IMG/VR virus record: IMGVR_UViG_2526164668_000016
Location: 1-22,129 of that record
DNA: 22,129 nucleotides
Strand: one strand, 5' to 3'
DNA from: a virus
Taxonomy: Duplodnaviria; Heunggongvirae; Uroviricota; Caudoviricetes
In this document: piece by piece, positions 18,849-22,121 of the stretch
Position numbering within the stretch: the first letter of the stretch is position 1
How the letters are laid out: each line of letters starts with the position of its first letter
Notes under the pieces: generated by a model
What the model saw: only the letters and a program-made list of their open reading frames with translations
Told to the model about the DNA's origin: nothing
Database searches by the model: none
Translations under genes and position numbers: made by a program

Positions 18849-18924
18849 GGCCCTTTAGCTCAGTGGTGAGAGCGAGCGACTCATAATCGCCAGGTCGCTG
18901 GTTCAAATCCAGCAAGGGCCACCA
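18849..18924 (+). tRNA. tRNA with CAU anticodon, ileX/ileZ-like (tRNA-Ile2; Met by anticodon alone)
   Basis: 76 nt cloverleaf: acceptor GGCCCTT/AAGGGCC, D-stem GCTC/GAGC, anticodon loop CTCATAA, T-loop TTCAAAT, 3' CCA; near-identical in outline to E. coli ileX as recalled. Confidence 0.85.
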
Positions 18925-18925
18925 A

Positions 18926-19007
18926 CCGCCACTAGCTCATCAGGAAAGAGCAGACGACACGATAACAGGGTTGTTGGTGCGGGGTTCGAGTCCTCGATGG
19001 CGGTCCA
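18926..19007 (+). tRNA. tRNA-like element with non-canonical anticodon arm (possible tRNA pseudogene or atypical argN-like tRNA)
   Basis: 82 nt; acceptor stem (6 bp plus one mismatch), D-arm and T-arm (GGTTCGAGTCC) fold canonically and a 3' CCA is present, but the segment in between folds only as a 6-bp stem with 11-nt loop and no assignable anticodon. Confidence 0.35.
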
Positions 19008-19020
19008 TTATCTGTACCCT

Positions 19021-19097
19021 GCTTTGTTAGCTCAGCCGGACAGAGCAGTTGCCTTCTAAGCAATTGGTCACTGGTTCGACTCCAGTACAACGCGCCA
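19021..19097 (+). tRNA. tRNA-Arg (anticodon UCU)
   Basis: 77 nt; acceptor GCTTTGT/ACAACGC (one mismatch), D-arm, anticodon stem GTTGC/GCAAT with loop CTTCTAA, T-loop TTCGACT, 3' CCA. Confidence 0.8.
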
Positions 19098-19109
19098 CAC
19101 TTATTTTCC

Positions 19110-19135
19110 AGGCTCGCTTCGGCGGGCCTTTTTTG
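19110..19135 (+). terminator. rho-independent terminator after the tRNA cluster
   Basis: AGGCTCGC-ttcg-GCGGGCCT followed by TTTTT. Confidence 0.7.
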
Positions 19136-19266
19136 TATCTGCGCCACGCCCGGCGCATATCAACCACAGAGCCTTTCGGGGGTGAGCTTACGGAGTGGTC
19201 AGTGTGACTTTCTCTGTGGGCAGATCGCTCCCGGGCGTTGGCTCACCCACCCAAAGGAACGTCACG

Positions 19267-19698
19267 ATGTTTGGAATCTTCAAAAAGAAAACCCGCAGAG
19301 CGGCAGCGGAAATTAAAAAGTTTGAGAAACGCGATCTGGCACAGGCGGTGATTAACGCTGCATACCTGGTGGCCTATGCAGATGGTGAATGCGAGGCATC
19401 CGAGAAAGCGAAGATCGAACAGGTCTTACGTAATCAGCCTGCGTTGTCTGCGTTTACCTCGGAAATTAATGCGATTAGCGCAACCATTATCGGTCAGCTG
19501 GATACCAATTTTAAAATTGGTCGTCGTGCCGCGTTACGCGAGATTGAGGATGTGAAACACGATACGCGTGAAGCGGAAGATGTGCTGGATGTGGCGGTGG
19601 CCATTGCGGAGGCAGACGGCGAAATTGAGCCGGAAGAGCGCAAGGTGCTGGAAGAGATTGCCGGTGTTCTGGGTCTTCGTCTGGAGAATCACCTGTGA
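19267..19698 (+). CDS. TerB-domain (tellurite-resistance TerB-like) protein
   Basis: 143 aa; ATG 19267 with AGGAA RBS; …AVINAAYLVAYADGECEASEKAKIEQVL…DVLDVAVAIAEADGEIEPEERKVLEEIAGVLGL… matches the TerB two-repeat pattern (A.ADG….E…L) as recalled. Confidence 0.7.
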   Translation: MFGIFKKKTRRAAAEIKKFEKRDLAQAVINAAYLVAYADGECEASEKAKIEQVLRNQPALSAFTSEINAISATIIGQLDTNFKIGRRAALREIEDVKHDTREAEDVLDVAVAIAEADGEIEPEERKVLEEIAGVLGLRLENHL

Positions 19699-19862
19699 CG
19701 GTAAAACTGCGCCTGGCTGTGGCTGCACTCCTGCTGTTTCTGGTGGTGATGGTGGATTTCACCAGCAGAATCATGTCGGTGCTGGCGGATGGGGTGCTGG
19801 TCTGCGGCATTGTGGTATTGCTGTGGCCGGTGATAAAAAGAAACAGCCTGCATAATGCTTGA
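19695..19862 (+). CDS. small predicted membrane protein (55 aa, two hydrophobic helices), translationally coupled to the TerB-like gene
   Basis: GTG start overlapping the TerB-like stop (GTGA) with GGAGAA RBS; product VTVKLRLAVAALLLFLVVMVDFTSRIMSVLADGVLVCGIVVLLWPVIKRNSLHNA. Below the ORF-track length cutoff. Confidence 0.4.
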   Translation: MTVKLRLAVAALLLFLVVMVDFTSRIMSVLADGVLVCGIVVLLWPVIKRNSLHNA

Positions 19863-20029
19863 TTTCTTTGTTTGCTGTTTATTAAAAACACTTCTGCATG
19901 GTGAATCCCCCTGTGCGGAGGGGCGATCAGCAACCAGGTATATGGGATAATCGCGGATTCAGGTGCTGATACTGAATTCACCGGGAGGCACCCGGCACCA
20001 TGCAAGAAAAAGAATGTGCATGCAAACAT

Positions 20030-20054
20030 GCCCCTCTCCGGAGGGGCATTTTTT
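20030..20054 (+). terminator. rho-independent terminator
   Basis: GCCCCTC-tccg-GAGGGGC followed by A and TTTTTT. Confidence 0.65.
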
Positions 20055-20148
20055 ATGGGTAAAAAATAGCCCGAATGGGTTCGGGCAATAGCATGAGATA
20101 CTGATATTGTTGTGTTGTTATCGTGTGGATTTTAACCAGGGTTTATCA

Positions 20149-20174
20149 GGCTGCGCAACTGCGTGGCCTTTTTT
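20149..20174 (+). terminator. rho-independent terminator (stem with two G-U pairs)
   Basis: GGCTGCGC-aact-GCGTGGCC followed by TTTTTT. Confidence 0.5.
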
Positions 20175-20182
20175 CATTTCTT

Positions 20183-20227
20183 GGGCTGTAGTCCCCGTGT
20201 GTCATTCAGGCTTCCGGACTACAGCCC
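20183..20227. repeat. perfect 12-bp inverted repeat with 21-bp spacer, about 45 bp upstream of the NanS-p-like gene
   Basis: GGGCTGTAGTCC (20183-20194) … GGACTACAGCCC (20216-20227). Confidence 0.55.
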
Positions 20228-20270
20228 ACTCCATATCTGATTTAATACACTATCCCGGCCGGGAGGAATA

Positions 20271-22121
20271 ATGACATTTAAACATTATGATGTTGTCAGG
20301 GCGGCGTCGCCGTCAGACCTTGCGGAAAAGCTGACACACAAACTGAAAGAGGGCTGGCAGCCGTTTGGTAGTCCGGTGGCCATAACCCCTTATACCCTGA
20401 TGCAGGCGATTACAGCAGAAGGTGATGTGGTGGTCAGTGGTGCAACTGAGCCGGATTGGTACTACGTCATCGTACTGGCCGGGCAGTCCAATGCCATGGC
20501 TTACGGTGAAGGGCTTCCGCTGCCGGATTCATACGATGCTCCGGATCCGCGCATTAAACAGCTGGCGCGCCGCAGTACAGTGACGCCGGGTGGGGCTGCA
20601 TGCAGATATAACGATATTATTCCGGCCGACCACTGCCTGCATGATGTGCAGGATATGAGTACGCTGAATCATCCGAAGGCAGACCTGAGCAAAGGGCAGT
20701 ACGGCTGTGTCGGCCAGGGGTTACATATTGCCAAAAAACTGCTCCCGTATATCCCGAATAACGCGGGGATCCTGCTGGTACCATGCTGTCGTGGTGGTTC
20801 GGCATTCACCCAGGGCGCGGAGGGGACATTCAGTGCGGACACGGGGGCCAGCCAGGATTCGGCACGCTGGGGTGTGGGTAAACCGTTATATCAGGACCTG
20901 ATTGCGCGCACTAAAGCTGCATTACAGAAGAACCCGAAAAATGTGTTGCTGGCGGTGTGCTGGATGCAGGGAGAGTTTGACATGAGCGCCGCCACCCACG
21001 CACAGCAACCTGCGCTGTTTACAGCCATGCTGACACAGTTTCGTGCTGACCTCTCCGTGTTTAACGCGCAGTGCCATGGTGGCAGTGCTGCAGATGTGCC
21101 GTGGGTTTGTGGTGACACGACGTATTACTGGAAAAATACATACGCTACCCAGTACGACACCGTGTACGGCGGGTATAAAAACAGGGAGAGTGAGGGCGTT
21201 TATTTTGTGCCCTTCATGACAGACGGTAACGGCGTCAATACCGCCACTAACGCGCCGGCAGAAGATCCGGATATTCCGGCATCAGGATATTACGGTGCGG
21301 CATCGAGAACGAATGGAAACCAGGTATCATCAAACCGCCCGACACATTTCAGTTCATGGGCGCGCAGGAGCATTATTCCGGATCGTCTGGCAACCGCTAT
21401 TCTGAACGCAGCCGGGCGCACCTCAGCCTTCATCAGTGGTAAGGCACCGGAAATCAAACCCTCGCCCGGCGGCAACACGCCATCGGGTCCGTCTGCAGAT
21501 ACGTCCGTTCGCACAATCTCCCTGCTGCCGGCAGCCGGAGAGGCTGCTGCGCAGGGCTGGAGCATTAAGGATGGCGGAATTCAGTTGTCAGATGGTGTAT
21601 TTAAGATCACCAAGCAGAGCAATAAAACCTGGTCCCTGACGCATCCGGTGGATGACGCAATTACCCTGCTGACACAGGGCGGCAGACTGACCTGTAAGTT
21701 CCGCCTGTCAGGCGCACTGACCAACAATCAGTTCGGGCTGGGGATTTATCTGTATACGGATGCTCCCGTTCCTGATGGTGTGGCGATGACGGGTACCGGT
21801 AATCCGTTCCTGATGTCGTACTTCACTCAGACCACTGACGGCAGAGTGAATCTGATGCATCACAGGAAAGCCGGAAACACGAAGCTGGGGGAGTTCGGCG
21901 ATTACGGTAACGACTGGCAGACGCTGGAGCTGGTGTTCACCGCCGGCAGTGCCACGGTTACTCCGAAACTGAATGGAGTGGCTGGCCCGGCATTCCAGGT
22001 TATAAAAGACAGTCTGACACTGGGACTGAATGCGCTGACGCTGACGGATGTTACAAAAAATGCAGCGTATGGCGTTGAGATAGAAAGTCTGGTGCTGGAG
22101 ATAAATGCACCGGCAGCATAA
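20271..22121 (+). CDS. NanS-p-like sialate O-acetylesterase (phage YjhS/NanS family, SGNH/DUF303 with C-terminal extension)
   Basis: 616 aa; GGGAGGAA RBS; N-terminal esterase region with GQSNA motif (…YYVIVLAGQSNAMAYGEG…); occupies the position this family holds downstream of stx in Stx-converting phages. Confidence 0.8.
   Translation: MTFKHYDVVRAASPSDLAEKLTHKLKEGWQPFGSPVAITPYTLMQAITAEGDVVVSGATEPDWYYVIVLAGQSNAMAYGEGLPLPDSYDAPDPRIKQLARRSTVTPGGAACRYNDIIPADHCLHDVQDMSTLNHPKADLSKGQYGCVGQGLHIAKKLLPYIPNNAGILLVPCCRGGSAFTQGAEGTFSADTGASQDSARWGVGKPLYQDLIARTKAALQKNPKNVLLAVCWMQGEFDMSAATHAQQPALFTAMLTQFRADLSVFNAQCHGGSAADVPWVCGDTTYYWKNTYATQYDTVYGGYKNRESEGVYFVPFMTDGNGVNTATNAPAEDPDIPASGYYGAASRTNGNQVSSNRPTHFSSWARRSIIPDRLATAILNAAGRTSAFISGKAPEIKPSPGGNTPSGPSADTSVRTISLLPAAGEAAAQGWSIKDGGIQLSDGVFKITKQSNKTWSLTHPVDDAITLLTQGGRLTCKFRLSGALTNNQFGLGIYLYTDAPVPDGVAMTGTGNPFLMSYFTQTTDGRVNLMHHRKAGNTKLGEFGDYGNDWQTLELVFTAGSATVTPKLNGVAGPAFQVIKDSLTLGLNALTLTDVTKNAAYGVEIESLVLEINAPAA

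Follow-up and report, generated by a model that had tools for sequence, protein, structure and literature searches.

The phage TciA/TciB module in the stx position of a lambdoid prophage late region

We analysed a 22,129-nucleotide stretch of tailed-phage DNA (IMG/VR record IMGVR_UViG_2526164668_000016, positions 1 to 22,129; here called the window), in which the place that the Shiga toxin genes (stxAB) hold in Stx-converting phages is taken by two small genes, tciA and tciB. The segment concerned, 19146-19877, is almost certainly the phage TciA/TciB module, which joins a TerB-fold protein to a small membrane protein. The arrangement is real but ordinary, in that it places a long-annotated gene pair in a published architecture. 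The explanation of the pair that we prefer as a whole, at a probability of roughly 0.35, is a lytic-cycle function at the membrane of the infected cell that may exclude competing phages or colicins.

Results

A tciAB cassette in the place of stxAB

Both ends of the replacement were mapped by pairwise blastn. Homology with Stx2k and Stx2a phages spanned the transfer RNA (tRNA) genes and their terminator and ended at 19145, a point that lies 43 nt 5' of stx2A in those phages. On the right, Stx1a and Stx2a phages became homologous again at 19878-19882, corresponding to 87-95 nt 3' of stxB. As the shared flanks break off at 19145 and return at 19878-19882, the 732-bp cassette between them, which consists of a leader, tciA and tciB, replaces an stxAB segment of about 1.37 kb. 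An initial annotation, made from the sequence alone, had described a toxin slot without stx that holds a TerB-domain gene and a small membrane protein gene. With the junctions mapped against Stx1a, Stx2a and Stx2k phages, the slot holds at the nucleotide level, and the absence of stx was borne out by tblastn with the Stx1A/B and Stx2A/B subunits, which returned no match below E = 0.19.

Among the 130 TciA-encoding phage records, none had 'Stx-converting' in its organism name, whereas the flanks matched more than 200 records of Stx-converting phages. In that collection stx and tciAB thus look mutually alternative, which supports the proposal that the pair is alternative cargo. The two cassettes are alike in their insertion, 3' of the tRNA terminator and 5' of nanS-p and a pair of small RNAs (sRNAs; STnc100 and an anti-sRNA), and in their late-operon orientation. 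They are unlike in content, which is unrelated, in size, and in that the tciAB cassette is without toxin genes. Both stx1 and stx2 carry promoters of their own, whereas none was detected for the tciAB cassette. Of the other landmarks of a Stx-phage late region, Q lies upstream of the cargo in the same orientation, and the convergent sRNA pair and nanS-p lie 3' of it. TciA/TciB is the commonest occupant that we found of the stx position in non-Stx lambdoid prophages of enterohemorrhagic and enteropathogenic E. coli (EHEC and EPEC).

Identity of TciA and TciB

Coordinates and domain scores of all features are collected in Table 1. TciA matched phrog_632 ('tellurite resistance') over positions 1-143 of 143 (E = 1.7e-69), and its residues 14-137 aligned with the solved TerB structure 2JXU (E = 4.4e-8). 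In an AlphaFold2 (AF2) model the TerB part reached per-residue confidence scores (pLDDT) of 80-90, and the top Foldseek match was the TerB-like structure 2H5N, at a probability of 1.00. Both DG-x5-E motifs of the fold are present, as ADGECEASEK (residues 38-47) and ADGEIEPEER (residues 116-125), and align with SDG..SEEK and SDGNFDDDEK of 2JXU. TciB matched phrog_1470 ('TciB-like') over its full length (E = 4e-30). Its homologues keep the motif VDF(T/A)S.(I/L).S(V/I)..DG.L(V/I), and the DUF3927 core, VDF(T/A)S..S...DG.L, has its polar residues on one helix face. TciB is probably a small inner-membrane protein that forms a two-helix hairpin, and the positive-inside rule suggests a tight N-in/C-in topology. 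Sequence comparison indicates that tciA and tciB are real genes under purifying selection: between the window and phage JLK-2012, the ratio of nonsynonymous to synonymous substitution rates (dN/dS) was 0.04 for tciA, at dS 0.40, and 0.25 for tciB.

The counterparts in phage P1 are TciA and TciB (PHROGs 632 and 1470), accompanied there by TciC; the P1 tci genes were reportedly annotated by Lobocka and colleagues in 2004. TciA is 42-52% identical over its full length to the P1 and P7 proteins and has the MFG..KK N-terminus of P1 TciA, and the core VDFTS..SVL.DG.LV is common to TciB of the window and of P1. Gene order, the start/stop overlap and the proximity of tRNA genes are also the same. By contrast, the P1 pair belongs to the C1-controlled ban operon, versus a Q-dependent late operon here, its 5' leader differs, and tciC has no counterpart in the window. 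The place after tciB is occupied by STnc100, and the only open reading frame (ORF) found there (31 residues, 19855-19950) had no likeness to P1 TciC. This ORF begins 5 nt before the tciB stop and extends into STnc100.

Coupling of a TerB protein to a membrane partner

The GTG start of tciB overlaps the TGA stop of tciA as GTGA. A DUF3927 ORF lay at or beside the tciA stop in 93 of the 98 loci with a complete tciA, and in four further loci a diverged small membrane ORF followed tciA. Diverged two-helix ORFs stood in the place of tciB in the jumbo phage Asesino and in a Pantoea locus. The initial annotation had called the pair translationally coupled, and both the overlap and the conservation of the small ORF beside the TerB gene agree with it. 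Among more distant relatives, an unrelated, cysteine-containing, single-pass membrane mini-protein overlaps the TerB stop in Pseudomonas phages AF and Zuri, and in a Paracoccus phage TerB is followed by another, unrelated two-helix ORF (loci compared for partner exchange, phage 434 included: L010 1632-1850, L012 1643-1846, L013 1614-1769 and L005 2638-3625). As judged from these sequences, what recurs is the coupling of TerB to a small membrane partner that can be exchanged. We consider it somewhat probable that TciA and TciB act jointly at the membrane.

A tciAB-like pair was also seen in a non-lambdoid context in Pantoea communis (L026, 4590-5616), where inspection by eye found it followed by a MazF/PemK-like toxin-antitoxin pair and a second TerB-like ORF. 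This setting hints at a conflict island.

Distribution and earlier descriptions

The cassette was found at a coverage of at least 80% in 790 of 5426 complete E. coli genomes (about 15%). Genomes that bear it do so at a median of 4 places and at up to 10, and in hundreds of genomes it was 97-99.9% identical. Prophage Sp10 of E. coli O157:H7 Sakai has the same order: the antiterminator ECs_1958, ileZ4 (tRNA CAT), argO4 (tRNA-Arg TCT), ECs_1959 labelled 'TciA/TerB-like protein', AgvB1, the esterase ECs_1961 and a holin. The two differ by mosaicism only, namely in the antiterminator allele and in the Psr-like and lipoprotein genes of the Q-to-tRNA interval, which are extra. The layout of Q, PR', a moron coding sequence, convergent sRNAs and a conserved ORF was drawn in 2014 (Tree et al. 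2014, PMC4104026), and TerB is among the conserved neighbors of the PasA/PasC sRNAs in a 2026 preprint. The view of the pair as new or unusual cargo was therefore not sustained, as it is P1 TciA/TciB, has been annotated in Sakai Sp10 and is common among E. coli genomes.

TciA shares 71-91% amino-acid identity from Escherichia to Pantoea prophages, and TerB homologues of about 40% identity occur in Paracoccus and Vibrio phages. TciA is also found with TciB in virulent N4-like phages and in jumbo Erwinia phages. Among the N4-like phages, the pair of Pollock lies among the middle genes, and in FSL SP-058/076 the tblastn matches to TciA and TciB are about 60 nt apart. The tci genes are non-essential in P1 by CRISPR interference (PMC10695390) and are often lost among P1-like phage-plasmids. 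We also checked whether the TerB-like gene is a core phage gene with a known lytic role; no lytic role is known.

In unrelated phage types tciAB adjoins tRNA genes, and the tRNAs differ each time: Asn/Thr/Ile in P1 (L004/L007), Asn/Thr/Gly in JLK-2012 (L003), Trp/Cys in the jumbo phage Asesino (L009) and Thr in Klebsiella phage 5 LV-2017 (L014), with a further case in phage Evi (L006). Homology between JLK-2012 and the window begins within the 3' end of the last tRNA. On these alignments, tRNA ends or their terminators may serve as recombination anchors. Transfer of tRNAs and tciAB as one block between P1 and lambdoid phages was considered and rejected; with the tRNAs only 77-86% alike and tciAB 67-69% alike, there is no sign of recent common ancestry.

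A conserved leader upstream of tciA

The approximately 125 nt upstream of tciA are conserved in prophages of Escherichia, Klebsiella, Franconibacter, Pantoea, Pseudescherichia, Enterobacter and Buttiauxella, and partly in jumbo phage Asesino. RNAalifold predicted four helices with 27 pairs in the aligned leaders, four of the pairs showing compensatory changes. Across 17 distinct sequences, 96% of the alignment cells were paired, against 39-53% in slid controls, and the covariation score exceeded that of all 500 shuffles. One U-A pair of the long-range stem appears as C-G in 8 of 18 leaders (7 of the 17 distinct rows), and the helix CCACAGAG/CUCUGUGG has compensatory changes in Buttiauxella and Asesino. 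Folded as a single sequence, the leader reached -57.7 kcal/mol (z = -2.5). The covariation sample is small and its members are related, and the structure was derived from the same alignment. Diversity was limited because the scan of genome contigs gave nine loci and that of viral contigs gave near-identical E. coli copies. We regard the leader structure as a side observation that may be new.

No Rfam family matched 19137-19266. That the leader might be among the Hfq-bound sRNA candidates reported by Tree et al. (2014) was also considered and rejected, there being no entry at the coordinates of the Sp10 leader. The long-range stem, P1, has a competitor in a local hairpin, GCGCC-N6-GGCGC (19141-19156). 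Each of the enterobacterial loci inspected had an intrinsic terminator at most 40 nt upstream of the leader, and the terminator sequences differed.

Expected timing of expression

Where lambdoid phages have the pair, it invariably occupies the interval from Q to the lysis genes in late orientation; P1 carries it in the ban operon, which is controlled by a C1 operator and repressed. A simple consensus scan found no sigma-70 promoter match in 19137-19266, and there was no conserved -10 element across the 18 aligned leaders. The three contexts in which the pair occurs, namely the lambdoid late operon, the P1 ban operon and virulent or jumbo phages, together point to the lytic cycle, and tciAB is probably expressed mainly then. 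By analogy with stx2, Q-dependent read-through is expected to be the main source of transcript. A moron in the strict sense is said, after Juhala and colleagues in 2000, to have its own promoter and its own terminator. The initial annotation implied a defence module or cargo for the lysogen, and this reading was weakened by the occurrence of the pair in strictly virulent phages, its place in a repressed lytic operon of P1, the upstream terminator without a detectable promoter and the lack of a PADLOC match.

Flanking features and the Q-to-tRNA stretch

The right-hand 5.5 kb of the window correspond to the Q-to-lysis segment of a lambdoid prophage, and the host prophage is lambdoid, of the type integrated beside yecE. 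A yecE-adjacent prophage was the nearest relative of the window, at 99.9% identity across 12.4 kb. The yecE prophage of strain OkiPb01716, elsewhere 99.9% identical, does not cover window positions 1-6465, which suggests a mosaic joint in the early region.

All tRNAs and genes that the initial annotation had named in the right-hand part (the tRNAs, the TerB gene, the 55-residue gene and the esterase gene) were present where it had placed them. It had also listed a Q homologue; this is present but lies outside the span described, 1.9 kb from the tRNAs. Its list of elements was incomplete, as the STnc100 and AgvB sRNAs, the decayed middle tRNA and the genes in the 1.9 kb from Q to the tRNAs had been overlooked.

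Table 1. Features of the Q-to-esterase segment (positions in the window)
Feature	Position	Strand	Evidence
Q antiterminator gene, 126-residue ORF	16594..16974	+	PF06530 Phage_antitermQ, 173 bits; phrog_79
Lipoprotein-like gene, 148 residues	17055..17501	-	N-terminal lipobox-like signal; phrog_3152 full length, function-unknown family
Probable late promoter / StxS-like short terminated unit	17567..17650	+	Hexamers 17567-17594; terminator 17631-17643 and T run
Small helix-turn-helix (HTH) ORF, TrmB-like	17774..17971	+	phrog_331; weak PF01978 match
AraC-family regulator, YdeO/GadX-like	18107..18820	+	PF00165, PF12833; NCBIfam YdeO 108 bits, below cut-off
Promoter-like site for tRNA cluster (putative)	18810..18838	+	TTGATT-17-TATTAT
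ileZ-like tRNA, anticodon CAT	18849..18924	+	ARAGORN; Rfam tRNA 72.5 bits; PGAP 'tRNA-Ile' in identical prophages
Decayed tRNA, argN position	18925..19007	+	PGAP 'tRNA-OTHER'
argO-like tRNA-Arg, anticodon TCT	19021..19097	+	ARAGORN; Rfam 62.1 bits
Intrinsic terminator 3' of tRNAs, left slot anchor	19110..19136	+	8-bp GC-rich stem and T6
tciA 5' leader, about 125 nt, apparently structured	19137..19266	+	Conservation, covariation
tciA, 143-residue TerB-fold protein	19267..19698	+	PF05099, 60.2 bits vs cut-off 24.4, residues 26-138
tciB, 55-residue DUF3927 membrane protein	19695..19862	+	PF13064, 62.3 bits vs cut-off 25
STnc100 / PasD-related sRNA, right slot anchor	19867..20060	+	Rfam RF02076, 142.7 bits vs gathering 47, full length; terminator 20028-20056
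AgvB anti-GcvB sRNA	20062..20123	-	Rfam RF02702, 88.7 bits vs 56, positions 1-62 of 62
NanS-p-type sialate O-acetylesterase (yjhS homologue), 616 residues	20271..22121	+	DUF1737, SASA and DUF6645; phrog_143

Compared with the tRNA trio of Stx phages, the ileZ-like and argO-like genes are intact and the argN position holds a decayed tRNA. Alignment to argN (Arg-TCG) of Stx phages and to the tRNA-Lys(TTT) gene of phage Evi covers the acceptor, D and T arms of 18925-19007, and the anticodon arm of this stretch is 5 nt longer than theirs. A functional odd tRNA was rejected here, as neither ARAGORN nor Rfam called it and its fold (z = -1.06) was no better than that of shuffled sequences. The middle position of the trio thus varies, being Arg(TCG) in Stx phages, Lys(TTT) in Evi and a decayed copy in the window. 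The terminator that follows has a sequence common to Stx2 phages up to 19145. For the tRNAs that lie 5' of stx2, a start site of transcription has been mapped (Sy et al. 2020).

On the other side of the cargo, AgvB is convergent with STnc100, and both lie between the cargo and the esterase gene. AgvB matches the sequence printed in Tree et al. (2014) and has the position of AgvB1 in Sakai Sp10; a preprint of the Storz laboratory relates PasD to STnc100 beside an esterase gene. A further plus-strand intrinsic terminator (20148-20176) lies beyond the AgvB 5' end, about 100 nt before the esterase start. The sRNA HnrS was sought and rejected as a feature of the window: its copy in Sakai Sp10 lies about 5 kb from AgvB1, on the far side of the lysis genes, and would thus fall outside. 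The esterase gene has 95-97% DNA identity to yjhS/nanS-p of Stx1a phages, 434 and JLK-2012, and in related prophages a holin gene comes next after it.

PGAP starts Q 15 nt further inside the ORF, and the label in the yecE prophage is 'antiterminator Q family protein'. The 1.9 kb from Q to the tRNAs hold a reverse-strand lipoprotein gene, a StxS-like unit, a small HTH ORF and an AraC regulator. The lipoprotein-like gene is antisense, is inserted between Q and the probable late promoter, and has a promoter-like site of its own (17520-17491). Positions 17594-17654 are 87-90% identical to the segment directly 3' of Q in Stx1a and Stx2a phages, and a promoter and terminator scan of 17567-17650 predicted an RNA of about 50 nt with a strong terminator. 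As the PR'/tR' product StxS has been located just 3' of Q (Sy et al. 2020), this is probably a PR'/tR' or StxS short-form unit. In Stx2k phage phiSTEC1575 the same HTH ORF and AraC gene, and the tRNAs, likewise lie upstream of stx2k, and the HTH ORF is labelled 'TrmB family transcriptional regulator'. The HTH ORF and AraC regulator (17687-18820) possibly belong to the prophage Psr/PatE regulator group.

Discussion

The preferred explanation proceeds from the layout of the late region. In a lysogen, transcripts from the late promoter would end at the nearby terminator and those of the tRNAs at 19110-19136, and with both terminators stopping transcription the pair would be largely silent. After induction, Q-modified RNA polymerase would pass both terminators and transcribe tciAB as it does stx2 in that place. 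The leader, with its covariation-predicted structure 5' of the ribosome-binding site, may stabilise or gate the mRNA, and the GTGA overlap would couple translation, so that TciA and TciB would be made together. TciB is predicted to insert in the inner membrane, where the cytoplasmic TciA, like other TerB proteins, would work with it. More speculatively, and by analogy, the complex may act during the latent period as a guard of the infected cell's membrane against superinfecting phages or pore-forming colicins; the pair would then be a phage-borne exclusion function, and neither a toxin nor a lysogen stress-resistance gene. A lytic-cycle membrane function rather than lysogenic conversion is indicated by the occurrence in virulent phages, the P1 ban operon and the terminator without a promoter.

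The analogy draws on the wider TerB literature. The ter operons are reported to inhibit phages and to make cells resistant to colicins; the defence systems Shango, Bunzi and Dionysus contain TerB domains, with a membrane-surveillance role proposed, and TerB proteins have been described as membrane-associated. TciA resembles TerB of ter operons (R478, Klebsiella; 2JXU) in having the same domain over its whole length with both DG-x5-E motifs, but its partner is a DUF3927 mini-protein and the TciA/TciB module is phage-borne; no ORFs for terZ, terA, terC, terD or terE were found in the window or in related prophages. With Shango (SngA), Bunzi (BnzA) and Dionysus (DinB and a pore-forming membrane protein) it shares the combination of a TerB-type domain and a membrane component. 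Unlike them, tciAB is without helicase, ATPase, MAEBL or pore-forming-toxin partners and is encoded by phages, including virulent ones. Taken by itself, the specific exclusion role remains tentative and rather unlikely. A narrower version, which we find doubtful, is a minimal phage-borne TerB membrane-surveillance module in which TciA would be the sensor and TciB, with its acidic-polar helix face, the effector, secondary infections being excluded or aborted and the structured leader gating expression.

Several observations weigh against an exclusion role or against its premises. The literature searched offered no experiments on TciA/TciB, only remarks based on homology, which is also the sole origin of the name. 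In PADLOC-DB v2, which includes Shango and Bunzi, TciA matched only PDC-S48 (E = 0.0035, 14.5 bits, 35 residues) and TciB matched nothing. Late expression leaves a lambdoid phage little time for exclusion to pay, and expression in lysogens could arise by terminator read-through or from a promoter that the scan missed. Nor is the pairing obligatory, since Vibrio phage K481 has TerB without a membrane partner and phage 434 lacks TerB and has DUF3927 behind a 247-residue polytopic membrane protein. DUF3927 is a small family, with 62 clusters in an exhaustive search of 1.84 billion cluster representatives, and among those representatives no genuine natural TerB-DUF3927 fusion was found that could serve as evidence of interaction; the longer DUF3927 proteins P0130, P0145 and P0172, and also P0181 and P0243, were frameshift chimeras. 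An AF2 model of a TciA-TciB interface, made on the frameshift fusion P0181 with a mixed alignment, gave a confident TerB and no usable contact, and drew TciB as one long helix at low confidence (pLDDT 47-79).

Other explanations share much of this evidence. The pair may be a housekeeping helper without a role in conflict, in which TerB and TciB, acting at the inner membrane, would buffer ion, metal or envelope stress or tune holin timing, keeping the cell energised until lysis. The retention of both DG-x5-E motifs by the TerB fold agrees with this, as does the location of the pair shortly upstream of the lysis genes in Evi and Klebsiella phage 5 LV-2017, and its presence in virulent phages fits a general benefit during the infection cycle. 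In the host proteins DjlA and DUF533/YebE a TerB-like domain is likewise held at the inner membrane; here TciB would supply the tether in trans, whereas in the host proteins the transmembrane segment is part of the same polypeptide (joined in DjlA by a J domain), and TciA matches their profiles weakly, scoring far below the cut-offs. P1, N4-like and jumbo phages, however, have the pair away from their lysis genes; its dispensability and frequent loss are traits seen more typically in conflict genes than in physiology genes, and no ligand or metal is known for the branch of the family to which TciA belongs. We judge such a helper unlikely, if worth keeping in mind. Closest to the initial annotation is a lysogenic-conversion moron, expressed in the lysogen as an anti-phage module or as a tolerance factor for tellurite, oxidative stress or colicins. 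The site is a classical moron site and also the home of stx, EHEC and EPEC genomes carry several copies of the cassette (at a median of 4 places and at most 10), both families are filed by PHROGs under 'moron, auxiliary metabolic gene and host takeover', and TerB domains occur in the validated Shango, Bunzi and Dionysus systems and in the phage-inhibiting ter operon. Yet a strong terminator stands directly 5' of a leader without a sigma-70 promoter match, the pair also occurs in strictly virulent phages, the P1 copy is in a C1-repressed operon and PADLOC returned no match; for tellurite in particular, the necessary TerC, TerD and TerE are absent from the window. This makes a lysogenic moron improbable.

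A counter-defence decoy, in which phage TerB would mimic the host TerB sensors (ter, Shango, Bunzi, Dionysus) and jam surveillance while TciB holds it at the membrane, would suit the presence of the pair in virulent and jumbo phages, given that jumbo phages are the specific target of Dionysus, itself a TerB system; in P1 and N4-like phages expression would belong to early or middle lytic units, and the distribution is accessory and patchy. We hold it to be highly improbable: the idea is purely analogical, TciA is not close to the defence TerB proteins in PADLOC, and late expression in lambdoid phages would come too late to block the sensing of entry. That the pair is an inert hitch-hiker, without function and kept between recombination anchors, might be read from its lack of a known phenotype and from its being non-essential in P1. 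The selection data (tciA dN/dS 0.04 at dS 0.40) disfavor an inert passenger, and conservation from Escherichia to Pantoea with distant homologues in Paracoccus and Vibrio phages, as well as the conserved gene overlap and leader, also stand against it, so that this reading can practically be dismissed.

The residual interest of the arrangement lies in the function of the pair and, as a modest separate lead, in the leader RNA. The module is found in about one in seven complete E. coli genomes, is under strong purifying selection and recurs in lambdoid, P1-like, N4-like and jumbo phages. If it does act in exclusion or as a membrane guard, it would provide a small, tractable model for the role of TerB domains. 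It would then also bear on the competition among co-resident EHEC prophages during induction and thereby on the output of Stx phages.

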